A stretch of 64,000 bases of DNA from a virus (IMGVR_UViG_3300042520_001624:7485-71484); one strand, 5' to 3'. Positions 1,740 to 35,404 are shown, numbered from the stretch's first letter. Notes: generated by a model from the letters alone, not told the origin. Made by a program: numbers and translations.

Positions 1740-2142
1740 GGACACCCTTCTGAACCTCTTGCTTGCTGGCCGACCGAGACCCGGTGGCCAGCAGCTTGAT
1801 GTCCTGCGGACTGACCTCGATCAGGGGGATACCTTCTAGCAGGGGGGCGATTGCTCCCCAGGCTAGTGCCATCTTCAAAGCGCTAGAGGCGTTACGGGGC
1901 CAAGACTGGGACTCTACGACCACTACGTCTGGCTTGGCTTCGGACAGAAACTCGTGTAGTTCTCGATAGATTTTCTGGGACCTACGAACGTTGTCTACGG
2001 TGGCGCTGACTTTCTCTGAGGTAGCGTTCTTCTCTGTTTCAATGACAAAACAGGAAGTGAGCAGGGCAGAGTTGTCTTCTCCAATGGCCACAGACACAAC
2101 GCCAGTAGACCGAAACGAGATGTCCAAACCAACAACGTGCAT
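1579..2142 (-). CDS. ruvC: RuvC-like Holliday junction resolvase
   Basis: Motifs VVGLDISFRSTG, VVVVE, ASKQEV and HCYDAL match the RuvC catalytic D/E/D pattern. GGAG RBS precedes the ATG at 2142. Confidence 0.8.
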   Translation of the reverse strand: MHVVGLDISFRSTGVVSVAIGEDNSALLTSCFVIETEKNATSEKVSATVDNVRRSQKIYRELHEFLSEAKPDVVVVESQSWPRNASSALKMALAWGAIAPLLEGIPLIEVSPQDIKLLATGSRSASKQEVQKGVLNLVPSSAWVKQVVAAQIRTEGLQEHCYDALGAVLAAQRTEKYQLLRAALQRP

Positions 2143-2182
2143 AGTAACTCCTTGCTTCCAGAAGTAGCGTACAGTAGAACAA

Positions 2183-2593
2183 ATGTCCAGTATGAGCAGC
2201 ACCCGACTGATTCTGAACGGTCGTGTCTATACCTACGGGGACAGGGAAGTTCCGTACTCTACGGAGCAGCTAGAAGCACCTCTAGGGTACATCAATCCTC
2301 CCCAGAACGACTACGTAGATGGTCCTTGGAAACTCCGCTACCGTCTTATGGATAAGGCTAATCCCCCGCAAGACTGGCTGACAATGCCGGAAATGCTGGA
2401 GTTGACTCGGCAGCAAGAAACCTGGATAGCAATGAAGGTAGTCGAGGGCGCCGTGGACGCTGCCATGGTACGGGGCTCGGGTATTCCCCTGTTTCGTATC
2501 CGGAACAGGACAGAGATTGTGCATGCGCTGATTACAACCCCAGCAGCAACTGGGGTTAAAAAGGTCGAGAACAAGAACAGGTGGGACAAGTGA
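2183..2593 (+). CDS. Hypothetical protein
   Basis: 136-aa ORF coupled to the next gene by a GTGA overlap. Confidence 0.55.
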   Translation: MSSMSSTRLILNGRVYTYGDREVPYSTEQLEAPLGYINPPQNDYVDGPWKLRYRLMDKANPPQDWLTMPEMLELTRQQETWIAMKVVEGAVDAAMVRGSGIPLFRIRNRTEIVHALITTPAATGVKKVENKNRWDK

Positions 2594-3000: not shown

Positions 3001-4212
3001 ATGGCCTCTCCTTCTCAACACTTTGGAGCTTTGCGTGACGCAACTGCGGTAAGACAGGCTCCTCCAAAAACTCGGCGTGCTCGCAGGGAAGCAAAAGGGC
3101 TAGATTTTGGCCACTTCAAGCCGCATTCTGCGACAGACTCGGGACAATTTCGACCGCACGCAGCTACAGAGGGGGACTCTGGCCACTTTGGGGCTTTGAA
3201 GAATCCTACCCAACGCACAGAACACAACGACGGTGTCAGTGTGGACGGTGCGGCTTTTCGCAATGCAAAGCGTGCAATTGCGGATCGTGTACAAGGGGGG
3301 CTTCGGCGCGCTACAGGACAAGCAGGCGCGTGGGCACGGGACACTATAGATCAGTACAAATCTGTGCACTCCAGCAGCGGATCTGTTGCAGACTGGGCAA
3401 ACGCAGATTCTACAAAGGCCAATGCCCGGTTTGCCTTGGGGTCTGCGTTTAACCAGCATCTGAAAGACAAGATGGGCAACGCTAACAAACGTGGGGGTCT
3501 AATCTCCCGCACTTTGTGGACGTTTGCGCACACTGCATTTCAGAGCACGATGAGAAACCTAAAAGAGGACCAGCGCACATTTGAGCATGTTGCGCGTGTC
3601 CGACGTGGCGATCCCAACATCAAAGACCTCACGCACAATGAGCTGCGTGCAGTTCTGGCGCACGCCGACAAGTTTGGCGGAAAAGACAAAGAGCGCGTAA
3701 AGGCAATGGCAGACGGGGAGCTTGCGCGCCGCTGGGACGTAAAAGCTACGGAGCACGCCGGGTACGATGCTGCCCGTCGAAACAAGCTAGACGCCTCTCG
3801 TGCGGGTGCCGTGCAGGCAAAAGCTGCCGAGAAGGAAATGCGCGGACAAGCTCGCGCCGCAGAAAGCGCGCATAAGCAGGAGCGGTACCACCAAGACCAG
3901 ATCCGTCGCAATGAGGAACTGCACAAACAAAAGCTCAAGCACCAGACCGAGCTTCGGCAGGTTGCTGGGGTCGGTGCAGGCGCCAAGGCTGCTACCGACG
4001 TTGCTGTAAAGCAGGCGGGTGCTCGTAAAGCCGCTAAAGACAAGCCTACAAAGACAAAAGAAGCGTTGCAGGTTGTAGGCAAAACCAAAAAAGGCAATGC
4101 AATTGTAAAGACAAAGACGGGCACGACTCGTGTAGCAACACAAGCTGAAGTTACAAAGAGTCGTGGAGCTCGAACTAAGAGCGTCACTCCTACACGTCGC
4201 ACACGGCGGTAA
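3001..4212 (+). CDS. Basic Ala/Lys/Arg-rich protein, probable virion internal protein
   Basis: 403 aa with GAGG RBS. Short G[H/Q]F repeats at the N-terminus, coiled-coil-like middle and very basic C-terminus. Function inferred from position only. Confidence 0.55.
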   Translation: MASPSQHFGALRDATAVRQAPPKTRRARREAKGLDFGHFKPHSATDSGQFRPHAATEGDSGHFGALKNPTQRTEHNDGVSVDGAAFRNAKRAIADRVQGGLRRATGQAGAWARDTIDQYKSVHSSSGSVADWANADSTKANARFALGSAFNQHLKDKMGNANKRGGLISRTLWTFAHTAFQSTMRNLKEDQRTFEHVARVRRGDPNIKDLTHNELRAVLAHADKFGGKDKERVKAMADGELARRWDVKATEHAGYDAARRNKLDASRAGAVQAKAAEKEMRGQARAAESAHKQERYHQDQIRRNEELHKQKLKHQTELRQVAGVGAGAKAATDVAVKQAGARKAAKDKPTKTKEALQVVGKTKKGNAIVKTKTGTTRVATQAEVTKSRGARTKSVTPTRRTRR

Positions 4213-4213
4213 C

Positions 4214-5131
4214 ATGCGAGAAGCAGATGGCCTTCTTCTGAATTACGGCGGCAAGTCGCGCATAGCGCACAAGCTTGTCCAGCACTTTCCGAAGGGGCCA
4301 AACTGCTATGTTGAGCCTTTTTTTGGAGGCGGAGGTGTCTTCTTCTCCGTGCCCGAGCAGCTGTATCCAGTTCAGGTAATCAACGATCTGAACAAGTCTG
4401 TTGTTACTTTCTACCGGGTACTCAGGGACCGCACAGAGGACCTGCTGCGGGTATGCTCCCTAACTCCGTTTGCTTTGGACGAGCAGCGAGCTTGTCGGGA
4501 CAGTTCTAAAGATCCCGAAGACGAGCTTGAAGTTGCTCGACGTGTCTGGGTCCGGCAGCGTCAGAACTTTGGGGGACGGCAGCACCCGTCTGCGGGTTGG
4601 CGCAGGGGTACCGAGGTACAGTCTTGTGCCTCTGCTACTGCCGCAAAGCTTCCGGAGTTTGAGCGCTTCGCGCAGAGAATGCTGTCTGTAGAGATCAACA
4701 ATACAGACGCTCTAGAGTTGGTACAAACCTACTCTAAACCAAACGTGTTCATCTACGCGGACCCTCCTTACTACCCAGAGACGCGGACGACTAACAACGA
4801 TTATGAACATGAGATGTCTCCGGAGCAGCACTTGCGGCTATCGGAACTGCTACATGCAGCTTCGGACAACGGGGCTCTGGTAGCTATCTCCGGCTACGAC
4901 TGTCCGTTCTACAACGAGCAGTATGGGTCTTGGCGAAGGGTTGAGTACCAGCACTACGTGTCCTCTACGAACTTTGTTTCGGCGGAGGAACGTACTAGAA
5001 CCGAGTGCATGTGGGTGAATTACCCTGTAAGTCTGGAGATTGGACCTGCTTGGCAGCCTAATTTGAAGGCTACAAACAGTAAAGAGAAGGCACTGCTAAG
5101 GCTGATCAACAGCCGTAGAGGTCTAAAGTGA
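4214..5131 (+). CDS. dam: DNA adenine methyltransferase (Dam/D12 class)
   Basis: Motifs YGGKSR, YVEPFFGGG, INDLN and catalytic DPPY. Confidence 0.9.
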   Translation: MREADGLLLNYGGKSRIAHKLVQHFPKGPNCYVEPFFGGGGVFFSVPEQLYPVQVINDLNKSVVTFYRVLRDRTEDLLRVCSLTPFALDEQRACRDSSKDPEDELEVARRVWVRQRQNFGGRQHPSAGWRRGTEVQSCASATAAKLPEFERFAQRMLSVEINNTDALELVQTYSKPNVFIYADPPYYPETRTTNNDYEHEMSPEQHLRLSELLHAASDNGALVAISGYDCPFYNEQYGSWRRVEYQHYVSSTNFVSAEERTRTECMWVNYPVSLEIGPAWQPNLKATNSKEKALLRLINSRRGLK

Positions 5132-5394: not shown

Positions 5395-5438
5395 TTGCTA
5401 TCTAAACTCTGCGTTGTATGATTTACGCAGAGGTAATA

Positions 5439-6065
5439 ATGGCTAGCAGCCGCGCGGGACTCAAAAAGATTACGAAGAGCGTTCGGGGCAAGAAAGGGTC
5501 TGTCCGGCGTTCTTATTGGGTAAAAGCGCAAGAAGCAGCCAAGGGTGCTGGGCGTTTTCTTAACCGGCACAAAGGTAAGATTGCGGCGGGGGCGGCTCTT
5601 GCCGGAACGGCTGCACTTGCTATCCACAACCGAGGTGCTGTTAAGGGGGCCTACCATGGAGCGCGCATTGCTCACCGAGCATCTGGAGCGGTCTCGCATG
5701 GTATGAAGACTGTAACCGGCAGTGGCATGTCTCTGCGTAACCGATTCAACATTATCCGCACGGGAGCCATTGGGGGCGCAAAACTTGGTGGGGCCGCCGA
5801 CTACCTTCGGCATAATCCAGGCGTTGCACGGGGGGCGCGGCTTGCGGGCAGGACTGCGGTAGCCGCTGGAACTGTTTACGCGGCCAGACACAATCCTGCT
5901 GCCGTGAAAATGGCTGTTTTGGACGGTATCAACACGGTCCGCGACGGCGTGTCTATGTCTAGACAGACTGGAAACATTCGATGGTTAGGACGCTCTATTG
6001 GTGGCGCGCTGCGGTATGGCACCGCGGGTGGGCACCTGCGTAAGCTGGGCAGTGTGCTGCAGTAA
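5439..6065 (+). CDS. YWVK-tag family protein 1 (basic, Gly/Ala-rich)
   Basis: N-terminus RAGLKKITKSVRGKKGSVRRSYWVKA, GAGG RBS. Confidence 0.75.
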   Translation: MASSRAGLKKITKSVRGKKGSVRRSYWVKAQEAAKGAGRFLNRHKGKIAAGAALAGTAALAIHNRGAVKGAYHGARIAHRASGAVSHGMKTVTGSGMSLRNRFNIIRTGAIGGAKLGGAADYLRHNPGVARGARLAGRTAVAAGTVYAARHNPAAVKMAVLDGINTVRDGVSMSRQTGNIRWLGRSIGGALRYGTAGGHLRKLGSVLQ

Positions 6066-6119
6066 ACACAACTTGCAGTTTGTAGCAACAGGCGTAGCAT
6101 AATCGAAAGAGGTAACAAG

Positions 6120-6875
6120 ATGGCTGGTAGCCGTGCAGGTCTCAAGAAGGTAACCAAGGTCGTTCGGGGCAAGCGGGGTTCCGTAAAGCGGACTTACTGG
6201 GTAAAGGCCCAGCAGGCTGCTAAGGGCGTTGGTGGCTTTCTGAAGCGCCACAAGGGCAAGATCGCAGCGGGTGTGGCCTTGGCCGCAGGCGCCGCACTTG
6301 CACACCGTCACCGTGGTGCCATCAAGGGTGCATACCACGGCGCCAAGATTGCCAACAGTGCCGCGGGCGGCGTAAGCCGGGGCATGTCGGCGGTTACAGG
6401 CAAGGGTCTTGGTCTTCGTAATCGGATCAAGGCCATTGCAACGGGCGCACGCGTCGGTGCCGCAGTTGGCGGGGCTGGGGACAGTGGTCGCCGCGCAATG
6501 AGTGCTGGCCGCTCAATGCTGGACAAGGCACGCAGTCTTCCCTCCGCTGCTCGCGGAGCTGTTGCTGGCGCCAAGTTTGGTGGTCGTGCTGCAGCGGGTG
6601 CGGGTCGCGCAGGCGCCGCTGCAATGGGCGCGGTCGGTCGCGCAACAGTGAGTGGCACCAAGGCGGCTGCACGTCATCTTGGTGCAGGTACTGCGGGTCG
6701 CGTAGCTCGTGCGGGTCTGGGCGCCATGGGCGCCGTTGCACGGGGGACCGTCGGCGCAGTCAAGGGCATCGCACGGGCCACTCCGACGCTGGCAAAGACT
6801 GGTGCAATGATCGGATACCACGGCAACCGCGCTCGTCTGGCGGCGGGTCGTGCGTTCGGTCGCAAGAGCAGCTAA
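6120..6875 (+). CDS. YWVK-tag family protein 2
   Basis: N-terminus RAGLKKVTKVVRGKRGSVKRTYWVKA; clear paralog of the 5439 ORF. Confidence 0.8.
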   Translation: MAGSRAGLKKVTKVVRGKRGSVKRTYWVKAQQAAKGVGGFLKRHKGKIAAGVALAAGAALAHRHRGAIKGAYHGAKIANSAAGGVSRGMSAVTGKGLGLRNRIKAIATGARVGAAVGGAGDSGRRAMSAGRSMLDKARSLPSAARGAVAGAKFGGRAAAGAGRAGAAAMGAVGRATVSGTKAAARHLGAGTAGRVARAGLGAMGAVARGTVGAVKGIARATPTLAKTGAMIGYHGNRARLAAGRAFGRKSS

Positions 6876-6885
6876 GGAGCGCTAA

Positions 6886-7350
6886 ATGCGGGCAGGGCTA
6901 AAGAAAGTCGTCAAGACCGTACGCGGTAAACGTGGAACGGTCCGACGCTCCTACTATGTGAAGGCTAACGAGGCTCCTAAAAAGCAGGGGTTTCTTAGCC
7001 GACACAAGGGCAAGATTGCGGCGGGAGCCCTTGCTCTAGGGGCTGCTGCCCTCGCCTCTCGGCACCGTCTTGCTCTTCGCGGGGCGTACCACGGAGCTAG
7101 AGCCGCGCACGTCGAGAACAAAGCAATCCACAGCAACATGCAGCGTTTTGGCAAAGGCATGAGTCTTATGACTCGGGCTAAGCACATGCTGGGTGGTGCT
7201 CGTGTCGGTGCTCAGGTCGGCAACGAGCTACGTCCGCAGAAGAGTGGAGGCTGGCGACGTCTGCGAAGCGCCGGACAGGCAGTTGCTGCAGGACGTAACG
7301 TGAGCTCGTATCTTGCTGCGTCTAACGCGCTTAGCGGCTATCGCGACTGA
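6886..7350 (+). CDS. YWVK-tag family protein 3
   Basis: N-terminus RAGLKKVVKTVRGKRGTVRRSYYVKA, AGGAG RBS. Confidence 0.8.
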   Translation: MRAGLKKVVKTVRGKRGTVRRSYYVKANEAPKKQGFLSRHKGKIAAGALALGAAALASRHRLALRGAYHGARAAHVENKAIHSNMQRFGKGMSLMTRAKHMLGGARVGAQVGNELRPQKSGGWRRLRSAGQAVAAGRNVSSYLAASNALSGYRD

Positions 7351-7395
7351 TCTGCGGGCATACAAACTCTGCAGGTTGTAGACTGTGGGGAGAAT

Positions 7396-7956
7396 ATGTC
7401 CCGTAGCAATCTCAAAAGAATCCAGAAAGTTGTGCGGACGAAGCGCGGAAGCGCTCGCCGCACCTTTTGGGTGAAAGCGGATGAAGCTCCCAAACCCGAA
7501 GTACGGCAAAGTTTCCTGCGCAGACACGCAGGCAAGATTGCTGTAGGCACAGCAGCTTTGGTCGGTGCTACGGTCTTCGCCAAGCACCGACACGGAGCCG
7601 TTGCTGCCGCGGAAGGCGCACACGCAGCCTACAAAGGCGCTCGCATCGCTGATCACGCTTCACACTTGCTAACAGGTCGCGGCATCGGTGTAGGTAACCA
7701 CTACCGAGCTGTAAAGGCTGGAGCATCCTTGGGGTACGCTGCGGGTTCCATTGCAGACCAAGGAAGGCGAAAAGTCTATAACATGCTTGGGATCTCTCCG
7801 ACCCTAATGAATCTGGGTTACGGAGTGGCCGCTCTTAGTGTAGTGGGCATTAAAGGATACCGAACTGCCCAGCGCATTATTCAGCATGTAGACAGGGCAA
7901 AAGGCGTGCACCGTCGTATCGCTCGCGAAGTGAGTGGGGTGACACGTGCGCGGTAA
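7396..7956 (+). CDS. YWVK-tag family protein 4
   Basis: N-terminus RSNLKRIQKVVRTKRGSARRTFWVKA. Confidence 0.8.
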   Translation: MSRSNLKRIQKVVRTKRGSARRTFWVKADEAPKPEVRQSFLRRHAGKIAVGTAALVGATVFAKHRHGAVAAAEGAHAAYKGARIADHASHLLTGRGIGVGNHYRAVKAGASLGYAAGSIADQGRRKVYNMLGISPTLMNLGYGVAALSVVGIKGYRTAQRIIQHVDRAKGVHRRIAREVSGVTRAR

Positions 7957-8647
7957 TCTCAAGAAGGTAATCAAGACCGTTCGCGGCAAAAGAGGTTCTG
8001 TAAAGCGGACTTACTGGGTGAAGTCCCAGGAAGCTCCCCAAAAGCAGGGATTTCTACGTCGACATGCGGGCAAGTTGCTAGCGGGCGCCGCAATTGCAGG
8101 TCTGGCTATTGCTAACCGCCACAAGCTTTCTGGAGCAGCAAGAGGTGCTCAGATGGCTCTGAACGCTCACAAGCACTCTGGTACACAGCTCAGTACGTCC
8201 GAGCGTGCAAAAGACGCTTTCCGCATGGCAAAAGTTGGTTACGCTTCTAACCGCGGCATGGACCGAGTAGACGGTCTTATGTCGCGGGCTAGAATCCAGG
8301 CGCCATTGGCCAGAGACGCCGCACAGCGCGGTCTTGCTAAGACACGAGCAGGCGCGCAGCGAGCTATGCGTAACCTCCCGGAGAAGGCAACAGCGTGGCG
8401 TCGGGGCACAGGGGCGGATCTTGCTCATCACCTAGCCACTACCGGGGGGGACGCGGCAGCTAGCCACTTTGGGTCTAGGTTTGGACAAGTTGCAGGCACC
8501 GCCCTTGGCGCGCTTGCTGGAGGCCCCGCAGGCATGGCAATTGGCGGGTTCATTGGCGGACAGGCAGGAGGCTTTTTGGGGAGTCGGCATGCAGCTCCTC
8601 ACGTTGCCCGAGGCGCAGAGTGGCTCGCCAACCGACTGCGTAGGTGA
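7946..8647 (+). CDS. YWVK-tag family protein 5 with glycine-zipper-like C-terminus
   Basis: N-terminus RGNLKKVIKTVRGKRGSVKRTYWVKS; GTALGALAGGPAGMAIGGFIGG segment near the C-terminus. Confidence 0.8.
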   Translation: MRGNLKKVIKTVRGKRGSVKRTYWVKSQEAPQKQGFLRRHAGKLLAGAAIAGLAIANRHKLSGAARGAQMALNAHKHSGTQLSTSERAKDAFRMAKVGYASNRGMDRVDGLMSRARIQAPLARDAAQRGLAKTRAGAQRAMRNLPEKATAWRRGTGADLAHHLATTGGDAAASHFGSRFGQVAGTALGALAGGPAGMAIGGFIGGQAGGFLGSRHAAPHVARGAEWLANRLRR

Positions 8648-9487
8648 TTGGTGTCTCTGCAGCGCCGAACACTGGTTGTACGCGGCAAACACGGCAGCCA
8701 CAAACAGACTTTTTGGGTAGCCAATGAGCTCCCCAAGGAGCAACGCACTCTGCGATTTGCCGAAGGGGAACGAACAAAGCCGAAAAACTCTGTAGTAAAT
8801 CCGAAAGACGGAGTAACTGTTCAGTACGGCATGCTCTTTGCACGAAAGGCAAACGAAGGTGTCGACCATGCGCTTGCTGCAATCGGCAAAGTACATGGAG
8901 TTCCTAAAGACTTGTACAAACTTCCTGTACAGGTGAAAGGAAGTCTGGGCGGGGCTAACGGTGCGTACTCTGTCTGGAGCCCAATTGGACCGAACAGCAA
9001 GCTTATGGTCTCCAAGTGGGCAGAAGGCCCTGCGGCTACTGTTGCCCATGAGTACGGACACTTTCTGGACCACCAACTGTTTGGAACGGGGAAACCTACA
9101 CTACAGGCGATGGCAACTATAAAGTGGGCTCAGCGAGAGCCCGGAGGGCGAGAAGTCGCTCCCGTTATGCGAGCTATCTGCAGCAGCAAAGCCGTGCACA
9201 GCTTGGTACTCGCGCACGAAAAGAACGTAAAGAACAACGATGGGTATGGCCAAAGACTGAGCAACTACTTGCTCATGCCCCCGGAGATGTTTGCCCGAGC
9301 CTACAACCAGTACATCGGACTCCGTAGTTCCCCGCAAATCGCGGCAGAGACACGTGAGTTTGGAAGAAGCTGGGGCAGGCACGGATACGACGCGCAATGG
9401 AATGATGCAGACTTCGCTCCTATTGCTCGTGAGTTTGATAGACTGTTCCAACGTCGGGGTCTTCTACGTCGCAGGAGTGCAGAATGA
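8648..9487 (+). CDS. YWVK-tag family protein 6 with zincin metallopeptidase / LPD1-like domain
   Basis: Degenerate tag LQRRTLVVRGKHGSHKQTFWV; HEYGHFLD (HExxH) followed by EMFARAYNQY. Confidence 0.7.
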   Translation: MVSLQRRTLVVRGKHGSHKQTFWVANELPKEQRTLRFAEGERTKPKNSVVNPKDGVTVQYGMLFARKANEGVDHALAAIGKVHGVPKDLYKLPVQVKGSLGGANGAYSVWSPIGPNSKLMVSKWAEGPAATVAHEYGHFLDHQLFGTGKPTLQAMATIKWAQREPGGREVAPVMRAICSSKAVHSLVLAHEKNVKNNDGYGQRLSNYLLMPPEMFARAYNQYIGLRSSPQIAAETREFGRSWGRHGYDAQWNDADFAPIAREFDRLFQRRGLLRRRSAE

Positions 9488-9702
9488 AACCTGAAGACAT
9501 GATCAAGGGTCTTGCTCGCCAGAAGCATTCGATTTCTTTGAAGGAGAACGACCACGAAGCGGAGGTGGAGAACGCAGAAACTCAGATGGAGTACGTCATG
9601 TACAAAGACCGACATGGCGACTTGGAGCTGGCTCCAGGGGATACTATCGACTTTGACCCTTACCAGATCGCTAAAGCCGTACAAGACGGCGAAGACTGGT
9701 AA
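9484..9702 (+). CDS. Small acidic hypothetical protein
   Basis: 72 aa, ATGA overlap with the peptidase gene. Confidence 0.55.
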   Translation: MKPEDMIKGLARQKHSISLKENDHEAEVENAETQMEYVMYKDRHGDLELAPGDTIDFDPYQIAKAVQDGEDW

Positions 9703-9747
9703 CAGCTTCTAAGTAGCTATATACTGTACGCGGACACGGGAGACTAA

Positions 9748-10170
9748 ATGTCTAAAGCGGGATTGCGAAAGGTTACAAAGACGGTTCGCGGTAAAAAGGG
9801 AACTGTGCGCCGTTCTTACTGGGTAAAGAGCGCGGACAACAATCAGCGCCGTAAGAGCGTGTTTAGTCCAGGAGAGTCAGCCTACAGGAAGAACTCAGGA
9901 CTCGCCTCGGCAAATACGGGAGCACGCGTGGGACTAATAGCTGGCCTGCTGGGCGCCCACCGAATTCCGGGGTCGCCGATTGTGTCCGGCGTCGGGGCAC
10001 AGGTACTCGCACATCGACAGCGGAAGCAATACGGCCAGCGCGGTAAGTCTATTTTTGGCAAGCTGGGACATGGCATTGCTACAGAGCTTGGCCACACCAC
10101 GGGGCACTTTGTAGGGTCGGCACTGCATGAGGTTGGCCGTGAGGGCGTTAGGCGCTTTTTCCGCAGGTAG
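9748..10170 (+). CDS. YWVK-tag family protein 7
   Basis: N-terminus KAGLRKVTKTVRGKKGTVRRSYWVKS. Confidence 0.8.
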   Translation: MSKAGLRKVTKTVRGKKGTVRRSYWVKSADNNQRRKSVFSPGESAYRKNSGLASANTGARVGLIAGLLGAHRIPGSPIVSGVGAQVLAHRQRKQYGQRGKSIFGKLGHGIATELGHTTGHFVGSALHEVGREGVRRFFRR

Positions 10171-10199
10171 CAACTTGGGATAGGTAGGAGGAAGCGATT

Positions 10200-10754
10200 T
10201 TGAAACGCGCAGGACTTGTAAAGAAGGTTATCAGCACAAAAAAGGGAAGGCGTACCTACTGGGTCAAGCCAGCCCAGCCAGCTGACCTCTCAAAACTTGT
10301 GGGGACAACTAAGTACTACGCTGCGAGAGCCAAAGACTTCCGCAAGCGGGAGGGGAAAGCTCCGCCTGCGTATTACATGGGGTATGGCAACAAGTACGCG
10401 CACAGGTTTACGCATCAAACGCGCAAGAAGCTTAGCCCCGAGGGCAAGAAGTTCGTCGACAAGACTCTATTTGAGCTGCAGAAAGCTATCGAGGACCGAC
10501 GTAGGCGCAATCCAGCGGCCTTTGCTCGGTTGGAGCGAAATCCCGAAAAACTCAAGGCGTTTGCGTACAAGTCGCACGCACCCGCTTACATACGCGGTGG
10601 TATCGGGAAACTTGGCGTGCGCGATCTTGTTCGTGTGGGCATGACGCCAGACAGAAAAGATCTGTTCAATAAGGATGGAGTTAGCCAGGGCGTAGCAGTG
10701 GCAAAACACGTTGTAGTTCGCCGATTTAAAAACGTGCGGCGGGGCCGCTGGTAA
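10200..10754 (+). CDS. YWVK-tag family protein 8 with globular cargo domain
   Basis: N-terminus RAGLVKKVISTKKGRRTYWVKP; cargo PPAYYMGYGNKY...AYKSHAPAY...TPD. Confidence 0.7.
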   Translation: MKRAGLVKKVISTKKGRRTYWVKPAQPADLSKLVGTTKYYAARAKDFRKREGKAPPAYYMGYGNKYAHRFTHQTRKKLSPEGKKFVDKTLFELQKAIEDRRRRNPAAFARLERNPEKLKAFAYKSHAPAYIRGGIGKLGVRDLVRVGMTPDRKDLFNKDGVSQGVAVAKHVVVRRFKNVRRGRW

Positions 10755-10783
10755 TCTAAACAGAACAGCTGTACAGTACGCAC

Positions 10784-11215
10784 ATGGCTGAAATGGACAT
10801 GCAAAGCTGGGCCAAGAATCGTCCTCCGCCTGGGGGCGAAGAAGACCCTGTACCCTCCGAGGAAGTACCCCCGGAGATGGGGCTAGACGCCAAACAGGGC
10901 GGGATGGGCAACAAGACCCCCGACCAGATGGAGAACATTGTCACGTTGATGCGCCAGCATCTTCCCGAGGTTGAGTCTCAGCTGGGGAACATGGATCCGG
11001 TAATGCTCTTGTCTGACGGACAAGAGTTGCCCGAGGGGGAAGCAGACCAGCTTTTGGAGCTTCTGGACACCTGGGATGACGGACTTCCGGAACTTCTCTC
11101 GGGGATTTTTCCGGACGAGGCGATCACGGTGTCGGAGGCTCTAGCAAACGAGATTCAAGAAGTAGAGCCTGTTCTAGTGGCGGCATGGATGTGGCGAGCG
11201 GGAGAGCTGGTGTGA
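10784..11215 (+). CDS. Acidic hypothetical protein
   Basis: 143-aa D/E-rich ORF in the head module. Confidence 0.6.
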   Translation: MAEMDMQSWAKNRPPPGGEEDPVPSEEVPPEMGLDAKQGGMGNKTPDQMENIVTLMRQHLPEVESQLGNMDPVMLLSDGQELPEGEADQLLELLDTWDDGLPELLSGIFPDEAITVSEALANEIQEVEPVLVAAWMWRAGELV

Positions 11216-11217
11216 AA

Positions 11218-11352
11218 ATGGCTAAGACTGTAAAGAAGAGTTCCAAACACCCCGACGAGAAAGAGGACAAGGCTCTGATCAAGAAGATGATCAAAGACTC
11301 TGGCTGCTCGTCAAAGTGCAAGAAGCCTGCTAAGTCTAAGAAGAGGGGTTAA
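11218..11352 (+). CDS. Small Lys-rich protein (44 aa, not in ORF track)
   Basis: Hand translation MAKTVKKSSKHPDEKEDKALIKKMIKDSGCSSKCKKPAKSKKRG; fills the gap exactly and has a TAATG overlap with the next gene. Confidence 0.6.
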   Translation: MAKTVKKSSKHPDEKEDKALIKKMIKDSGCSSKCKKPAKSKKRG

Positions 11353-11738
11353 TGCCAACACAGATGCTGACATTCAACGGGGAGGTTTCAGTTGAGCCTC
11401 TGTCCGGAAACAACTCGGGACAGCCGACTGTGTTGGTGTCTTACAACCAGCGAGTTGCTCAGGAGCGTCAGCTTGTGACGACCTACACCCTGGATGCAGA
11501 CGGCGCTGTGTCTGTAGATTTGGGACCTCTGACAGAAGTAAATTTCCTGTCTATTACGGCAGTGGGAAACAAGATTCGAGTCCGGATTACATCTGCTGAC
11601 GGAAACAGTCAGTCTATTCCGGTTGACCCGTCCTTGATTCTGCGCTGTGATAGTGTAGGTATAACAGCCATCGACCTGACTCGAACAGCCACGTACGACA
11701 CTGATGTCTACTTGGTTATGACGCAGATTCCAGACTGA
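11352..11738 (+). CDS. Putative virion structural protein
   Basis: Beta-rich 128-aa ORF upstream of the scaffold. Confidence 0.5.
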   Translation: MPTQMLTFNGEVSVEPLSGNNSGQPTVLVSYNQRVAQERQLVTTYTLDADGAVSVDLGPLTEVNFLSITAVGNKIRVRITSADGNSQSIPVDPSLILRCDSVGITAIDLTRTATYDTDVYLVMTQIPD

Positions 11739-11750
11739 GGAGAATAGAAA

Positions 11751-12236
11751 ATGCCCGTAACGCCCGCAGACGTGACTCTACAGCAGGTTCTCAACAAGGC
11801 GAACCTGAACCAGCTTGCGACCATTCTGCAGAAGATGAAGCTGGGCAACATGCTCAACCCCGTTCGGGTGGTTGTGACTGGTCTTACTGCAACTCAGGAG
11901 ATCAACATTACCAGCGCGGCTGTCCGAGCTGCTGCAACCATTACGGGCCTGGAGCGTGAGACCGGGGACAACCTTCCGCCCATTCTTTCGGTGAAGGTTC
12001 TCCGCGTAACTGCTTCGGGCACTGCCAACAGCGTAGGTAGCTACGCCGTTACGGACGGTCTGGTAGCGGACGTTGCTCGCTGCGTTAGCCCCACTGCAGG
12101 TGCGAACGTGGGTCTGGCCTTGCTTTCCAACGACGGCACGAAGCTGACTTTCCCGTCTACTGTGACTGCGTTTGTACTTGAGTACATTCCGCGGTCGAAC
12201 ACTGATCTCGAAGACAACTGGGTCTCCGGGGTTTGA
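11751..12236 (+). CDS. Putative head decoration/structural protein
   Basis: Strong GAGGAG RBS, Thr/Val-rich, adjacent to scaffold and capsid genes. Confidence 0.5.
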   Translation: MPVTPADVTLQQVLNKANLNQLATILQKMKLGNMLNPVRVVVTGLTATQEINITSAAVRAAATITGLERETGDNLPPILSVKVLRVTASGTANSVGSYAVTDGLVADVARCVSPTAGANVGLALLSNDGTKLTFPSTVTAFVLEYIPRSNTDLEDNWVSGV

Positions 12237-12269
12237 TAGAAACGTCTGGGCAAGGAGACGTAACTACAC

Positions 12270-13046
12270 ATGACAACTGAGAATACGAACCCCGATACCG
12301 AACTGCAGGATGTTCTGGACGATGTACTTCCCGATCCGGAAGTCCAGCTGTCTGAGCCCGAGGAGCAGCCAGCTACACGTAGCGTAGCCCAGGCACTCAA
12401 GCGGGAGGGACAGAAGGACAACGCGGCCCAGCGTAAGCAGGACCGTGAGGCCGGTCGGCAGTCGATCCTAGAGGCGTACAACAAGAAGGCAATGTCTCTT
12501 GGCTTTAAGACAGTCGAAGAGATGTTTGCTGCTCAGCAAAAGGCAGAGGGGAAGGGTGACGGTAAGAAGGTCCAGTCTGAGGCTCTTGCGCAAGCACAGT
12601 CTCAGATCGATACCCTCAATCGTCAGGTGCGCGGGTACAAGTCGCGCATCACTCAGCTTGAGACCGAGCTTCAGCTTCGTAACATTGCTTACGAGTCGGA
12701 CGTGAATCCCGAGGACATCGAGTATGCAATCTCGCGTGTTCACACGACCTACAAGGGACTTACGGATGATCAGGCAAAGTCGTTCGATCCCAAGAAGTTT
12801 CTTTCTGAGGATCTGAAGACCAAGAAGCCCAGCATCTTTCGTCAGGCGCTTGCAGCAAAGCAGGCTGCAGAGACTGCCAAGCCTGTTGAAGAGCAGCCCG
12901 TGAATACAGCCCCTGCGGGGTCTGCTCCTAAGCCCAATGGTGGGTCTTCGGAGGAAGCTCCGCGCCGTGCAACTGCGATGAGTCGTGCGGAGTATCTTGA
13001 GGCTTTGCGCTCGAAGGGCATCAAAAACCCTGCGGGCTTTGTGTGA
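12270..13046 (+). CDS. Capsid scaffolding protein
   Basis: Acidic N-terminus, coiled coil and Pro/Gly tail ending MSRAEYLEALR; directly precedes the major capsid gene. Confidence 0.7.
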   Translation: MTTENTNPDTELQDVLDDVLPDPEVQLSEPEEQPATRSVAQALKREGQKDNAAQRKQDREAGRQSILEAYNKKAMSLGFKTVEEMFAAQQKAEGKGDGKKVQSEALAQAQSQIDTLNRQVRGYKSRITQLETELQLRNIAYESDVNPEDIEYAISRVHTTYKGLTDDQAKSFDPKKFLSEDLKTKKPSIFRQALAAKQAAETAKPVEEQPVNTAPAGSAPKPNGGSSEEAPRRATAMSRAEYLEALRSKGIKNPAGFV

Positions 13047-13116
13047 GATAAGGTGGCACTAGACTTGCGTAGTGAGTCTTTTGCCAGTAGAGAATAAGGA
13101 AAGAGGAGACTAACAA

Positions 13117-14514
13117 ATGGACTTCGGCATTGCCGTAATGACCCCAGAGATTCGTTCGATCATCCAGGAAGGTTACCTGGAGCGAGCGTTTCACGATGCC
13201 CTGTTTCCCCAGCTCATCTACCGGGGCGACGTTGTTTCGGTGCCGTGGCCCGGTGAGGTTGGCGACCAGCAGATCTTTACTGGTAAGGGTCTCATTCCCC
13301 CGAAGGGCAAGCCGCTTGCTCCGGGTGTTGATCCCGAGCCCGTGTCGTACCAGCTGGAGCAGTGGGAGTCGACTCTCCAGAACTACGCTTCGACCATCGA
13401 CACGCACATGCCCACCAGCGTGCAGGCGATTGCGGACCTTCTGATGCAGAACGCTGCCCAGCTCGGTATGCAGTCGGCACAGACCCTCAACCGTCTTGTG
13501 CGTGACCGCATGCACAACGCGGCTGAGGCGGGCTGGTCGGTTGCTGACGGTGCGGCCTCGGGCGGCTCGTCTGCTTCGCTTCGCGTGAAGCGCCTCAACG
13601 GGTTTACCCGTGCGCGTAACCCGAACCTGTCGAACGGTTCGCGTGTCCGCTTTGATCAGGTGTCGAGCACCAACCCGCTTGCTATCACGGTCGGCGGGAC
13701 TGCTCGCAACGTGATTGGTTACACTCCCGATACCGCTGGCGACGAGCTTGGTCCGGGTACGCTGACTCTGAGCTCGGCTGCCAACTGGGCCGACCGTGAT
13801 GCAGTGCTCTCGGTGGACCGCTCTGGCACCCTCTTCGTGGGCGGTGGCAATCGCGTGGACGATCTTGACGTGACGGATCTGCCCCGTCTGCAGGACATTC
13901 GTAACATGGTTACCCGGCTTCGCCGGAACAACATCCCGCGTCATCCCGACGGGGACTACCATGCCCACATTGGCCCTGTGTCTGAGTCGCAGCTTCTCGC
14001 TGATACCGAGATCCAGCGCATGCTCACCGGCCGTCCGGAGAACTACATGTATCAGGACTTCGTTGTGGGTCGTATCCTCAACGTAGCCTTCGTGCAGAAC
14101 AACGAGGCCCCCACACCTCTTACGGTAGACCCGTACGACGGTGCAACCTTCAGCCAGGAGGACCCTTTCGCTCCTGAGCTGACTGCAGACGGCACCACGA
14201 CCGGCATGGAGGTTCAGCGTATCCTCTTCTCGGGTTACGGCGGCATCTTCGAGTACTTCCAGGATCCGGCCATGTACCTTACCGAGGCTGGTATCACGGG
14301 CAAGATGGGCGACGTGCAGGTCTCGAACAACGGTGTCGAGATCAACGCGGACCGCATCAAGCTCATCATGCGGGCGCCCCTCAACCGCCTGCAGGACATG
14401 GTTGCTACCTCGTGGCGCTTTGTCGGCGACTGGGTCTGCCGCACGGATGCCTCGACTGGCGACAGCGCACGTTTCAAGCGCTTCCTGTCGCTGAACACCG
14501 GTACTGCTGCCTGA
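13117..14514 (+). CDS. Major capsid protein
   Basis: 465 aa with GAGGAG RBS, after the scaffold and followed by a terminator; DYHAHIGP...L-D motif fits HK97-fold capsids. Confidence 0.8.
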   Translation: MDFGIAVMTPEIRSIIQEGYLERAFHDALFPQLIYRGDVVSVPWPGEVGDQQIFTGKGLIPPKGKPLAPGVDPEPVSYQLEQWESTLQNYASTIDTHMPTSVQAIADLLMQNAAQLGMQSAQTLNRLVRDRMHNAAEAGWSVADGAASGGSSASLRVKRLNGFTRARNPNLSNGSRVRFDQVSSTNPLAITVGGTARNVIGYTPDTAGDELGPGTLTLSSAANWADRDAVLSVDRSGTLFVGGGNRVDDLDVTDLPRLQDIRNMVTRLRRNNIPRHPDGDYHAHIGPVSESQLLADTEIQRMLTGRPENYMYQDFVVGRILNVAFVQNNEAPTPLTVDPYDGATFSQEDPFAPELTADGTTTGMEVQRILFSGYGGIFEYFQDPAMYLTEAGITGKMGDVQVSNNGVEINADRIKLIMRAPLNRLQDMVATSWRFVGDWVCRTDASTGDSARFKRFLSLNTGTAA

Positions 14515-14549
14515 TCACTACGACTCACTGAAAGCAGGCAAGAGTGGGG

Positions 14550-14590
14550 AAGGTCCCTGGGAGGTTGTAGCCCTGGGGACCTTTTCTTTT
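14550..14590 (+). terminator. Rho-independent terminator after the capsid gene
   Basis: Stem AAGGTCCCTGGG...CCCTGGGGACCTT followed by TTCTTTT. Confidence 0.75.
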
Positions 14591-14608
14591 GTGTGCTAGA
14601 GTTTTCGT

Positions 14609-14947
14609 ATGGGCAGGCCGAAGAAACACTACAATCACCACAACATTCTCCCTCCAGCAGAGAAGGAGATTACTCTGTCTTTCAATGCAGATCCGGAGAA
14701 GACAGTTCCCGGAATCTCTGCAGCAGCCGAAGCACTGTCGAAGCTTGCAGATGCTGTAGACACAACCAGCAGCGCTTTGTCTGCATTGCCTCTTCTGAAG
14801 ACTAAGTACTGGGTTGTACTGGAAGAGCGACGAGCCGCACTTAACGGCGCGCTTGTCACTGTCGCTAAGGGTAAGATTGTAAAGAGCGAAGCCATAGCTA
14901 AGCGTCTGATGGAGCAGAAGGTTCCGCTGGAGGAGAAGACTCTGTAA
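14609..14947 (+). CDS. Hypothetical protein
   Basis: 112-aa ORF, TAATG-coupled to the next gene. Confidence 0.55.
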   Translation: MGRPKKHYNHHNILPPAEKEITLSFNADPEKTVPGISAAAEALSKLADAVDTTSSALSALPLLKTKYWVVLEERRAALNGALVTVAKGKIVKSEAIAKRLMEQKVPLEEKTL

Positions 14948-15360
14948 TGTCGGCACTGCTAACAGAAGACGAGAAAGCACGATGCAGGCGCCATCTGGGC
15001 TTTCCAGAGGTCGCAGCTGTCAGTGTCTACGCAATGGGCATGGTGATTCCCATGCAGGGTGCGTTCCTTCTGGAGGCAGCGCTGAGTAGCCAGACTCAGT
15101 ACTCGGCAGAGCGTGTTCGGCAGCTGCTCGGCATTCTAGATGGCTTTGAGACCAAGATGCTCAAGGCCGCTTGCTACCTGACTGTGGAGTCTATTGGAGA
15201 CATCAAGATGCGCGGAGCGCAGTCTGGAATGACTTCTACGGACCTGCTTCGTCGGGAGTACATCTACTGGGCCAAGCGACTGTCGGACACTCTTGGTGTG
15301 CCGTACTACCCGTACGCTGAAATGTTTCAAGGACAGGGCAACATCCGGGTACGGAGGTAG
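14947..15360 (+). CDS. Putative head-tail adaptor
   Basis: N-terminus LTEDEKARCRRHLGFP; size and position after the capsid gene. Confidence 0.55.
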   Translation: MSALLTEDEKARCRRHLGFPEVAAVSVYAMGMVIPMQGAFLLEAALSSQTQYSAERVRQLLGILDGFETKMLKAACYLTVESIGDIKMRGAQSGMTSTDLLRREYIYWAKRLSDTLGVPYYPYAEMFQGQGNIRVRR

Positions 15361-15362
15361 GC

Positions 15363-15845
15363 ATGTCCAGAGCTGGACTTAAACGAGTTGTAAAAATTGT
15401 GCGCGGAAAGAGGGGCACAACTCGCCGTACGTACTGGATGAAGTCCCAAGAACGTCCCAACAGCCGGATGTCAGTTGGGGAGTTCGCTAAGAAGCATGGC
15501 AAGAACTGGATGGCTCTTCATGCGGCTTCCGGGGCTGCAGGGGGCTCTTTGGGATATCTTGCTTTGCGACATGGCAAAGTCGGAGGACATCGCGACAAAG
15601 ACGCCATGTTTTACCGTGCTTTGGCAGGCTACGGAGCGGGCGCTTACGGAAGCATGCCGCTACTTCTGCGGGGGCGTGCAGCAAAGATCTCCGAGTTTGC
15701 TGCAGACCACCGAAGACTTGGACGTGGTAGCAGGGCGCTTTTGCAAGGCGCCGGAGTGGCTGCGCAACTTGCAGGCATTGCGGGCGGGGCGTACGCCACG
15801 CACAAAGCACACTCTATCTTCAGGCAGGGAACCCGGGTAGGCTAG
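15363..15845 (+). CDS. YWVK-tag family protein 9
   Basis: N-terminus RAGLKRVVKIVRGKRGTTRRTYWMKS; lies among the neck genes. Confidence 0.75.
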   Translation: MSRAGLKRVVKIVRGKRGTTRRTYWMKSQERPNSRMSVGEFAKKHGKNWMALHAASGAAGGSLGYLALRHGKVGGHRDKDAMFYRALAGYGAGAYGSMPLLLRGRAAKISEFAADHRRLGRGSRALLQGAGVAAQLAGIAGGAYATHKAHSIFRQGTRVG

Positions 15846-17845: not shown

Positions 17846-19879
17846 ATGGCCGGAGCTGGCTTTGTACGACGGTATGGCTACTTCCCCGGGACGGAAGAGC
17901 TCAACGCAATTGAGGGTGTGGTCATTGTCGACCAGCGCTCTCCCGGTCCTATTAGCGGGGCTAGCTACGGCGTCGTGTGTGTGGTCGGCGAAGCCACCAA
18001 CATGTCGTCTGTGTGCAAGGTAAACACAGCTGGCGAAGTTGTGTCTTCGTTCCGCGTGCAGGAAGTCTATGGCGGTTCGGATCTCCTCGACAAGATCGGT
18101 GGGTTCGATTCGACTCTTGGGGACTTCGGCGATGAGATGGGCAACCTCTTTGTTGAGGTTCGCAACAAGCGTTTCTCCCGTCTCGCAGTCTGCCCGGTAG
18201 ACCTTGTTCGTCCGGCTTCGGGGACTACGCAGTACGCTGTTCGCTGCTGGCGTCAGCTCCCGACCAACACGAGCGCTACGGACACAACCCCGATTACTCC
18301 GGGGGTTGCTGTACGTCTTGAGGCAGGTTCGGAGTTCCGAGCCAGCACAGACCGCGTTATCACGGCAGCTCCTGTAGATTTTTCGGGGACTCCTCCGAAG
18401 ATTGTGGGCGTGAACGGTACTACGTCGGTATCGGGTCTTCCTGCGGCCACGGTAACGCTTACATCGTCCGGTGCAAACTTCGAGACTAACGGGGTTGCTA
18501 TTGGGGATGTTGTAGTTGTTGGCTCGCTCAATGCGGTTGCTCTGTCGCAGAACCTTGTCTGCGCTGCAACTCTTCGTGTAGTGACCGTAGACTCGGAGAC
18601 GCAGCTTACTCTGCAGAAGCTTGCTGGAGGCACCTTCACCGCTAGTACCGACTGGTTGGCTGGTTCTGCTCTTGCCTACCGCGTACACCGTGGAACTGAC
18701 GCCGACTCGGGGGCTGGTTACGTGCTGTCCGGTCCGGCAGGCTACTCAGTACTTGCTCGCCCGATTACCGGTACTGTTTCGGCTGCTACAGCCCTTGCAG
18801 CGTACCCGACTCCCACTGCTCCTACAGGGGCTGTCTGGGACGAGCTTTCGGGCCTTACTGGAGTAACGCACCCGACCGGGGCACTTACCTACGATGCCAA
18901 CGTACACGCTCCGAACCTGACGACCACCTCGTTGCTCCGGACCCGCTACATTGACGCGTTCAACGCTCTTCTCAACGACGTAGAGCCCGTGAACTCGATC
19001 TCGCTGGTTACCTGCGCACGTAAGGACAACACGATTCAGAGCCACCTACGTCTGCACTGCCTGTCGGCATCGCAGCGTGGCATGTCCCGCATGTACGTCA
19101 TCTCTCCGAAGCTGACAACTCTTACCAAGTCGACCATCCTCTCGGCTGCTGCTCCTGGCGTGGGCGGCACTGGCGGTGGTGCTATCCGCAACGAGCGGGG
19201 GATTTACTCGTGGCCCGGCTGCCGCACGTTCATCCCGGAGCTTGTCGGTACCGAGGTTGATTGCTCGGACGGTACGACTACGGACGATGGCTACATTGAT
19301 GTGTCGATGGACACTTGGGTAGCCTGTCTGCTGTCGAACCTTCAGCCTGAGTTGAACCCTGGACAGGCTGCAGAGCCTGTACCGACCATCTTCAGTCCGA
19401 TCATCGGCTATCAGCGGGGCACCCCTTCGCTGGACATGTCGGACTACATCCTGTTCAAGCAGGCAGGTATCTGCGCGCTCCGGATGGATCGCGTAGTTGG
19501 TCCCATCCTCCAGTCCGGGATTACTACGTCCCTGACTTCCGGAGAGAAGAACATCAACCGTCGCCGGATGGCAGACTTCATCCAGGACTCTCTGGCTGCT
19601 CGCTACAACCAGATGTCCAAGATGCTTGGTCGCCAGTCGATTAAAGACAGCCTCCTGTCGGAGACAGTGGCTTTCTATGAGGATCTGCTCTCGGACAACA
19701 ACCCGGAAGCACAGCGGATTGAGAGCTACTCGGTAGACGACAAGTCTCCGAATACCCCCGCGCTTTCTGCGCAGGGTATCTGGATCATCAAGAGTGTGGT
19801 GCGCATGCTGCCGACCCTTGATGTGATTGTTTGCCAGTCTGAGGTAAGCCCGGATGCCATCACGGTGACGGCTAGCTGA
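17846..19879 (+). CDS. Tail sheath protein
   Basis: 677 aa; N-terminal GVVIVD...ISG and C-terminal INRRRMADFI motifs. Confidence 0.85.
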   Translation: MAGAGFVRRYGYFPGTEELNAIEGVVIVDQRSPGPISGASYGVVCVVGEATNMSSVCKVNTAGEVVSSFRVQEVYGGSDLLDKIGGFDSTLGDFGDEMGNLFVEVRNKRFSRLAVCPVDLVRPASGTTQYAVRCWRQLPTNTSATDTTPITPGVAVRLEAGSEFRASTDRVITAAPVDFSGTPPKIVGVNGTTSVSGLPAATVTLTSSGANFETNGVAIGDVVVVGSLNAVALSQNLVCAATLRVVTVDSETQLTLQKLAGGTFTASTDWLAGSALAYRVHRGTDADSGAGYVLSGPAGYSVLARPITGTVSAATALAAYPTPTAPTGAVWDELSGLTGVTHPTGALTYDANVHAPNLTTTSLLRTRYIDAFNALLNDVEPVNSISLVTCARKDNTIQSHLRLHCLSASQRGMSRMYVISPKLTTLTKSTILSAAAPGVGGTGGGAIRNERGIYSWPGCRTFIPELVGTEVDCSDGTTTDDGYIDVSMDTWVACLLSNLQPELNPGQAAEPVPTIFSPIIGYQRGTPSLDMSDYILFKQAGICALRMDRVVGPILQSGITTSLTSGEKNINRRRMADFIQDSLAARYNQMSKMLGRQSIKDSLLSETVAFYEDLLSDNNPEAQRIESYSVDDKSPNTPALSAQGIWIIKSVVRMLPTLDVIVCQSEVSPDAITVTAS

Positions 19880-33762: not shown

Positions 33763-34047
33763 ATGGACGCACTAACAACAGTTTCAGTAACGCTGACTAC
33801 ATATCCTACGAATCCGCAGGTTACACAGACCTGGGAACCGGACTCGATTATGTTTGTGGTTGCCAGTACGACTGCAGCAGACCTCATCTATGTGTCGTTC
33901 AACGGGACTTCTGATGCGGGAGTGCTGCGACCCGGAGTTACAGGTGCGGTTGCTTGGCAGTCTAAGCGCACGAACATCTGGCTCCGTCTAGGTCCTGCGG
34001 CCACCAACCCTACGTCTGTAGACGTGATGACAAGCACGGTGCGCTGA
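33763..34047 (+). CDS. Small structural protein
   Basis: 94 aa with GAGGAG RBS. Confidence 0.55.
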   Translation: MDALTTVSVTLTTYPTNPQVTQTWEPDSIMFVVASTTAADLIYVSFNGTSDAGVLRPGVTGAVAWQSKRTNIWLRLGPAATNPTSVDVMTSTVR

Positions 34048-34874: not shown

Positions 34875-34902
34875 GCGCTCCGATAACCAGATGGACACTG
34901 AT

Positions 34903-34986
34903 ATGAACACACGCGAAGTACTTACTCTGGTCTTGCAGGCCACCAACCCCACGTCTGTAGACGTAATGGCGAGCACGGTGCACTGA
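34903..34986 (+). pseudogene. Chimeric recombination relic (holin 5' end fused to the 3' end of the 33763 gene)
   Basis: MNTREVLTLVLQAT-NPTSVDVMASTVH; DNA similar to 36839-36880 and to 33999-34060. Confidence 0.7.
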
Positions 34987-35402: not shown

Positions 35403-35404
35403 CA

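Follow-up and report, generated by a model that had tools for sequence, protein, structure and literature searches.

Nine genes in and near the head module of an uncultured tailed phage begin with the same short, basic peptide, which probably is an address that loads the proteins bearing it into the procapsid. The phage is represented in IMG/VR by a virus record of 71,484 bp, estimated to be 81% complete (IMGVR_UViG_3300042520_001624), and the window analysed here is the stretch of 64,000 nucleotides (nt) from 7485 to 71484 of this record; positions are counted from its first letter. The peptide, hereafter the tag, follows the motif M-x-RAGLKKVxKTVRGKxGxVRRxYWVK, has 23–29 residues, and is predicted to fold as a beta hairpin. 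The open reading frames (ORFs) that it opens, all on the plus strand, are designated by their first nucleotide (5439, 6120, 6886, 7396, 7946, 8648, 9748, 10200, and 15363). By analogy with the capsid targeting sequence of T4 and with the MuF proteins, the probability that the hairpin is a procapsid-loading address can be put at about 0.6. A first-pass annotation of this DNA had proposed such an address tag, delivering a panel of effectors. The address has gained indirect support from the N-terminal position of the tag, its conservation at the peptide level, the linker that follows it in a structural model, and the homologues of one cargo that are borne by MuF or portal proteins; the panel of effectors has not.

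The tag is restricted to the nine ORFs within the record. An alignment of the nine sequences gives 43–80% identity to the first tag over the first 23–29 residues. The profile built from it, run against the whole 71,484-bp record, scored 12 candidates and returned nine matches (E from 1.7e-21 to 1.2e-13), which are the nine ORFs, and a loose regular expression applied to the six frames recovered seven of the nine tags and no additional place. As a control, the profile was run against 702,403 bases of 46 unrelated bacterial loci, where it gave a single match, itself a true homologue. Alignment and profile search thus bear out the basic N-terminal YWVK tag that had been reported for these nine plus-strand ORFs.

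On sequence similarity, the tag defines a clade of uncultured phages. Patterns derived from a six-tag alignment retrieved 14 related loci on 13 other IMG/VR contigs (L010 and L011 lie on the same contig, contig ends truncate L013 and L014, and the pairs L005/L006 and L007/L008 look near-identical). The tag profile has 84 matches at E ≤ 0.01 in these loci, every one of them at the start of an ORF and on the strand of the head genes. The matches number 7, 7, 5, 11, 9, 9, 6, 6, 7, 1, 7, 5, 3, and 1 from locus to locus, or 5–11 per complete array. Among 1.84 billion protein cluster representatives, 186 match at E ≤ 0.001 and 39 at E ≤ 1e-10. The 150 listed of the 186 representatives and the nine proteins of the window make a set of 159, with lengths from 59 to 333 residues, and in 156 of these residue 1 is where the tag envelope begins. 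A scan of 185,579 species genomes with the tag patterns confirmed no relative, and at the level of titles and abstracts no description of this hairpin tag was found in the literature. Lone tagged genes occur elsewhere in the structural module at 15363 in the window, at 16913 in L002, and at 10001 in L010. A second form of the tag (..KKITVRSKKGKTYQRSVMVK..) stands alongside the main form in two related contigs (L003:9540 and 11411; L009:7457 and 7856). There is also a 55-residue ORF (window 11185–11352), overlapping the end of a gene for an acidic protein, whose start (..SGRAGVKMAKTVKK..) resembles the first strand of the tag but has no YWVK strand; L001 and L012 have it too, and it might be either a genuine small gene or the remnant of a tag.

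The consensus of the 150 listed representatives is M-[ASN]-R-A-G-L-K-K-V-[VT]-K-T-V-R-G-K-K-G-[TS]-V-R-R-S-Y-W-V-K, with a mean net charge of +9.4. Its predicted strands are amphipathic, with a conserved hydrophobic face (V9, V13, V20, Y24, and V26) and an opposite face that is polar and basic. In the AlphaFold2 model of ORF 8648, computed with 43 homologues, the tag is predicted to form a beta hairpin (strands 4–13 and 16–25) at a block predicted local distance difference test (pLDDT) of 76–87, in agreement with the hairpin-like character first attributed to it. A low-confidence linker follows (block pLDDT 51–71, with residues 36–40 below 50), and then a confident domain. Seven of the nine tags are free of indels, and their pairwise identity is 70% for amino acids and 63% for nucleotides, with different codons at 63% of the identical residues. 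The codons of the tag are scrambled and the peptide is retained; hence, selection acts on the peptide. Gene conversion or recent duplication, as the cause that keeps the tags alike, is ruled out by these codon differences. A search of PDB sequences with the tag profile gave nothing significant, the sole similarity, with E 2 no better than chance, being to the hairpin of ribosomal protein uL6. The 150 listed representatives share no conserved cleavage motif downstream of the tag.

Five of the nine tagged proteins (ORFs 5439, 6120, 6886, 7396, and 7946) are paralogs beyond the tag. When the tag was stripped from 157 proteins, the cargoes fell into 40 single-linkage clusters (blastp E ≤ 1e-4), the largest of which contains 76 cargoes, including those of the five window paralogs; 23 cargoes are singletons. 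Because five of the nine are paralogs within the largest cluster, the first-pass description of the cargo as unrelated is only partly right. The Gly/Ala-rich nature of the cargo was correctly recognised: 148 representative cargoes, from the listed clusters, have a median Gly/Ala content of 34%, and all are basic, with an isoelectric point (pI) of median 11.7 and minimum 9.76. For the nine window proteins, pI is 10.1–12.0 and the net charge +17 to +46. Nothing supports the panel of effectors: with the peptidase set aside, each of the 148 cargoes is a small, polycationic protein rich in Gly and Ala, and the HExxH motif of metallopeptidases is found in none of the 150 listed representatives. Pfam and PHROGs scans of the nine tagged proteins gave nothing above cut-offs, neither an internal-protein family nor a MuF domain. 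A protein atlas returned only low-scoring, unnamed clusters for ORF 10200 and for the acidic protein of 143 residues encoded directly after the tagged array. The cargo of ORF 10200 has homologues in three clusters only, all tagged and restricted to the clade, and lacks a match in cultured phages.

A different reading takes the tag as the conserved N terminus of fast-diverging paralogs that act late in the infected cell (for example, on the membrane, in lysis, or in anti-defence) and are not packaged. The large cluster, with 76 of the 157 cargoes and five of the nine from the window, stretches that are Gly/Ala-rich and glycine-zipper-like, and the location of all these genes in a late operon would all fit such a function. 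We consider it decidedly improbable, because the peptidase is of independent origin and the tag is far better conserved than the protein bodies, which moreover lack hydrophobicity of transmembrane level. The usual Kyte-Doolittle threshold for a transmembrane helix is ~1.6, and the best 19-residue mean lies between 0.65 and 1.36 across the nine proteins, so that a transmembrane or holin reading of the Gly/Ala-rich bodies was rejected.

ORF 8648 encodes the one cargo that had been singled out as a metallopeptidase, and both its sequence and its model place it among the zincins. H134, E135, H138, D141, and E213 are invariant in 44 sequences. The gluzincin pattern, HExxH with a downstream Glu, is provided by H134, E135, H138, and E213, the last of which would be a metal ligand. 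The predicted fold of the 279-residue protein (AlphaFold2, mean pLDDT 91.2) is best matched in VIA-align by M34-type zincins, with Z 9.0 to PPEP-2 (6fpc; root-mean-square deviation 3.4 Å, 148 aligned residues), Z 8.8 to PPEP-3 (3.5 Å, 152 residues), and Z 8.6 to the peptidase domain of lethal factor (3.9 Å, 149 residues), a Z of ~9 being barely above the background of 7–8 of this tool. Among the 50 matches listed, most are zinc metallopeptidases. Foldseek gave no match to the model at E ≤ 0.001. The LPD1 family (PF18796) matches ORF 8648 weakly, at 15.3 bits (E 0.021) against a curated cut-off of 27 bits; it is precomputed on two of 74 clusters of peptidase homologues, and eight of 20 homologues in long ORFs scanned for it score 16.8–22.7 bits, below the cut-off. 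The tag is found at E ≤ 0.01 in 61 of the 74 clusters and more weakly in three others; a further three are N-terminal fragments, and the seven most distant ones (28–36% identity) are untagged. As judged from its untagged, MuF-fused, and portal-fused homologues, this cargo is of independent origin from the tag.

The different carriers of the peptidase provide the strongest argument for the hairpin as a head address. Bacterial genomes were scanned with the peptidase alignment, which yielded 46 loci, and 20 of the 28 long ORFs among them were then analysed with Pfam. The tagged form is present in L016; in 28 loci the domain makes up the C terminus of a long ORF (280–982 residues), and in 16 it forms a short untagged ORF. 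Thirteen of the 20 long ORFs analysed carry a Phage_Mu_F domain in their N-terminal part, which scores above the curated cut-off in 11 of them, two are fusions to a portal protein (Portal_Mu, 120 bits, and Phage_portal, 146 bits), and five have neither. The ORFs just upstream of seven MuF-peptidase genes correspond to Portal_Mu in four cases, DUF4055 in two, and a DNA methylase in one. In two Akkermansia phages, the peptidase matches fall in genes annotated as "head morphogenesis". According to PMC5576092, MuF proteins are head components, SPP1 gp7 binds the portal, and the cargo of MuF is commonly a metallopeptidase (20% of 191 putative toxins). In PMC5512222, fusions to MuF or to the portal are interpreted as vehicles that deliver effectors. 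The peptidase therefore rides a known head-internal carrier elsewhere and the hairpin here. MuF itself (PF04233) has no match in the 71,484-bp record, and hhalign against MuF gives a probability below 1% for three candidate genes and of 0.3% for the tag compared with the MuF parts of 11 fusion proteins. It is possible, if doubtful, that the hairpin is a minimal transferable loading signal that takes the place of a MuF or portal fusion and, in one phage lineage, loads 5–11 interchangeable proteins, with the co-loaded peptidase processing them, in the head or on entry.

As an address, the hairpin would fold by itself and act from its flexible linker, docking on a head component and so recruiting its bearer into the assembling procapsid. 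Candidate receptors are the acidic C-terminal stretch of the portal protein, the protein at the scaffold position, the acidic 143-residue protein, and the capsid protein on its inner face. Complementary charge is a property of three of these candidates, namely, the portal stretch, the acidic N terminus of the scaffold-position protein, and the 143-residue protein, which might be either receptor or chaperone. A two-chain complex prediction with the tag alignment and the 143-residue protein scored 0.00, which for a prediction made without controls is informative neither way. The tagged proteins would thereby become internal proteins of the head. One of them would be the zincin metallopeptidase, which no genome of the clade has lost, and the other bearers would be fast-turning-over polycationic Gly/Ala-rich small proteins, probably lying with the packed DNA and leaving with it. 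Binding to a head component, presence in the virion, ejection, and removal of the tag are the steps that we infer for these proteins.

Several observations weigh against the address. In 16 of the 46 peptidase loci, the short ORFs have neither tag nor MuF and do not share their N termini with neighbouring genes, so that the domain need not always have a visible carrier. A search of these 16 loci for an alternative shared N-terminal tag revealed no general pattern, with a common N terminus only in two duplicated peptidase genes (L037 and L048). The exchange of carriers bears directly on the peptidase only, which is one of the nine tagged proteins, and no untagged or MuF-fused homologue was found for the cargo of ORF 10200 in a search confined to this ORF, the seven other cargoes not having been searched. 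The tag has no match at E ≤ 1 in cultured phages. The prohead protease families give no match at E ≤ 1 for S77 (PF03420) and none for S78 (PF04586) in this record, ~81% complete, and hence a removal of the tag in the style of T4 is without a known agent here. That the tagged peptidase itself clips tags or linkers, in a phage without a classical prohead protease, is speculation.

Finally, a hairpin of charge +9 on uniformly polycationic proteins is also what one would expect of a DNA-binding element. The hairpin might then be mainly a DNA-binding basic beta ribbon, with the proteins coating or condensing DNA and the peptidase tethered to it, and some other factor would have to bring about any entry into the capsid. 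Both the charge of the tag and the high pI of the cargoes, above 9.7 in all 148 and similarly high in the nine window proteins, agree with this. In addition, the title of Stiege et al. 2003 (reference 32 of PMC5576092) gives the name of DNA-binding protein to an SPP1 protein, presumably gp7, that reaches the procapsid by way of the portal. However, the conserved hydrophobic face of the hairpin suggests docking on a protein. The portal channel admits DNA but not the proteins attached to it, and entry into the head would still need an address. The place of the tag, which in homologues is occupied by MuF or portal, would also be left unexplained. A mainly DNA-binding hairpin is thus unlikely, although the two roles are not exclusive.

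A further reading concerns the hairpins as a hetero-oligomerisation module, whose joined beta structure would assemble a single internal complex, for example, a core on the portal, instead of each hairpin serving as an address by itself. The same amphipathic strand-turn-strand is carried by many co-encoded proteins, and the variant tag stands beside the main form in L003 and L009, as such a module might predict. Yet the tagged genes number 5–11 among close relatives, a variation not easily reconciled with a complex of fixed composition. This reading, a sub-variant of the address rather than a real alternative, is very doubtful.

Table 1. Head-region genes of the window, with the tagged ORFs in their order along the DNA
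Feature	Position	Strand	Description
Portal gene, 3′ part	1–1739	+	ORF begins 372 nt upstream of the window (L062:213–2324); 703 residues in full
Tagged protein 1	5439–6065	+	Tag 5439–5525; polycationic Gly/Ala-rich paralog, pI 12.0, net charge +33
Tagged protein 2	6120–6875	+	Tag 6120–6206; paralog of protein 1, net charge +46, Gly+Ala 45%
Tagged protein 3	6886–7350	+	Tag 6886–6963; paralog
Tagged protein 4	7396–7956	+	Tag 7396–7476; paralog
Tagged protein 5	7946–8647	+	GTG start; tag 7946–8023; paralog with a glycine-zipper-like C-terminal stretch (Gly-zipper_Omp, E 0.031, below cut-off)
Tagged zincin metallopeptidase (predicted)	8648–9487	+	TTG start; diverged tag 8648–8719; linker to ~residue 48–60; peptidase domain ~49–271
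Tagged protein 7	9748–10170	+	Tag 9748–9828; separate basic cargo cluster
Tagged protein 8	10200–10754	+	TTG start; shortened tag 10200–10268; basic cargo, probably helical
Acidic protein	10784–11215	+	143 residues, pI 4.05, net charge −25; directly after the array
Scaffold-position ORF	12270–13046	+	Acidic N terminus; directly upstream of the capsid gene; assigned by position only
Major capsid protein	13117–14514	+	Matches proteins annotated as major capsid in 7 phage records, at 26–30% identity and with at least 95% of the query aligned
Tagged protein 9	15363–15845	+	Tag 15363–15443; outside the array, among head-completion genes; absent at that position in L001

The location of the tagged genes (Table 1) agrees with the first-pass annotation: eight of the nine are bracketed by the portal gene on one side and, on the other, by the scaffold-position ORF that adjoins the major capsid gene, the scaffold being identified by position and the portal having 703 residues instead of 548. 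ORF 5439 starts at an internal ATG of an ORF spanning 5418–6065, a start supported by a homologue in L012. The portal was identified by tblastn, in which it matches proteins annotated as portals in Ralstonia phages (E 4e-16, with 26.6% identity across 61% of the query) as well as in Komagataeibacter phages. It has a weak match to DUF4055 (E 0.012), a family scoring 109–115 bits in the portal-position ORFs of other prophages, and its AlphaFold2 model at full length (pLDDT 44.6) is too poor to use. The strongly acidic stretch lies in a long C-terminal extension and is acidic in relatives as well. The capsid protein matches phrog_1357 (E 9.2e-9) and, below cut-off, TIGR04387 (E 3.8e-7); like the portal, it has homologues in Ralstonia and Komagataeibacter phages, and a Streptomyces phage has one as well. 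Neither the capsid protein nor the portal had a significant match among PDB sequences, family scans gave no match for the scaffold-position ORF, and NCBIfam, applied to ORF 8648 and to nine head-module proteins in its neighbourhood, contributed nothing. The acidic 143-residue protein is found in every related locus that covers the region, with 18 invariant columns across 10 genomes.

Within the clade, ~11 kb separate the portal and capsid genes, and the order of genes is conserved. The portal is followed by a RuvC-like gene on the minus strand, three small or basic ORFs, a Dam methylase, a small ORF, the tagged array, the gene of the acidic 143-residue protein, two small ORFs, the scaffold-position ORF, and the capsid gene. 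Conservation holds for the genes on either side of the array; within it, number and content vary, with the exception of the tagged peptidase, which is present in all 12 of the 12 loci covering the region. In Ralstonia phage Hyacinthe, the closest cultured relative, a single ORF lies between portal and capsid, which are the only genes of this region shared with the window.

Some of the neighbouring genes deserve a mention of their own. The large terminase subunit is encoded just upstream of the window, on the minus strand (L015:3492–6134; phrog_38, E 1.2e-52, residues 460–870), and its N-terminal part (residues ~84–451) has weak matches of Hint/intein type and may hold an intein. The RuvC-like resolvase gene (window 1579–2202, minus strand) is antisense within the head operon, its 3′ end overlapping that of the portal gene by ~160 nt, and the same arrangement is found in eight related loci covering the region (L002–L006, L009, L011, and L012). 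The Dam-type methylase between portal and tagged array (window 4163–5131) occurs as a tandem pair in L009 (4666–6539); in an unrelated prophage (L028:7006–7644), a DNA methylase directly precedes the MuF-peptidase gene. An ORF of 677 residues (window 17846–19879) occupies the position expected of the tail sheath; it has no match in PHROGs, nor any to the initial 1.3 kb of the sheath gene in Hyacinthe, and a contractile tail is not confirmed. The G+C content is 0.64 at window 34001–36000 and 0.52–0.60 elsewhere in the window.

Detailed knowledge of short loading signals for the heads of tailed phages comes from a handful of systems, T4 foremost. If the hairpin is indeed an address, the strategy arose more than once, here with an unrelated, structured signal of ~27 residues that is used clade-wide and on many genes. 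It would then offer a second short tag with which proteins of choice could be packed into the capsids of phages, and it would link three carriers of the same peptidase into the head, namely, the tag, the MuF domain, and the portal fusion. The variable polycationic array could also inform how internal proteins accompany the packed DNA.

Among known systems, that of T4 is the obvious term of comparison. Its capsid targeting sequence encapsidates diverse internal proteins as well as foreign ones (PMC3012670). There (IPI, IPII, IPIII, and Alt) as here, a short N-terminal sequence is shared by otherwise diverse and mostly basic proteins, which in T4 are internal to the head, and a sequence of this kind common to several head-region proteins of one phage is found in nine genes of the window phage and in 5–11 genes of each relative. 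The present system differs in having a predicted beta hairpin of 23–29 residues with a charge of ~+9, in having been found only in an uncultured clade, and in lacking both a match to S77 and a conserved cleavage motif after the tag. With MuF proteins it shares the plan of a putative head-targeting N-terminal part and a variable C-terminal cargo, the location next to the portal, and the zincin domain itself, present in 13 of the 20 scanned homologues. In contrast, the tag is much shorter than the MuF domain (~110 residues), has no detectable homology to it, and is spread over 5–11 separate genes where MuF occurs in single multidomain proteins.

The zincin-like peptidases of polyvalent proteins, which carry LPD1, are a third relative in kind: they also have HExxH and a downstream Glu, a zincin fold, and a head-module context, and ORF 8648 matches LPD1 weakly. 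Iyer et al. proposed for these peptidases a role in processing co-delivered polypeptides (PMC5512222). Unlike these, ORF 8648 is a stand-alone protein of 279 residues with its own tag and not part of a giant polyprotein. The cargo-loading peptides of encapsulins are likewise short terminal peptides that bring diverse cargo into an HK97-fold shell; they are usually C-terminal, and the shell is devoid of DNA. In conclusion, the hairpin system belongs to neither the T4 nor the MuF family by any tested feature, and, by analogy, it probably works like them.

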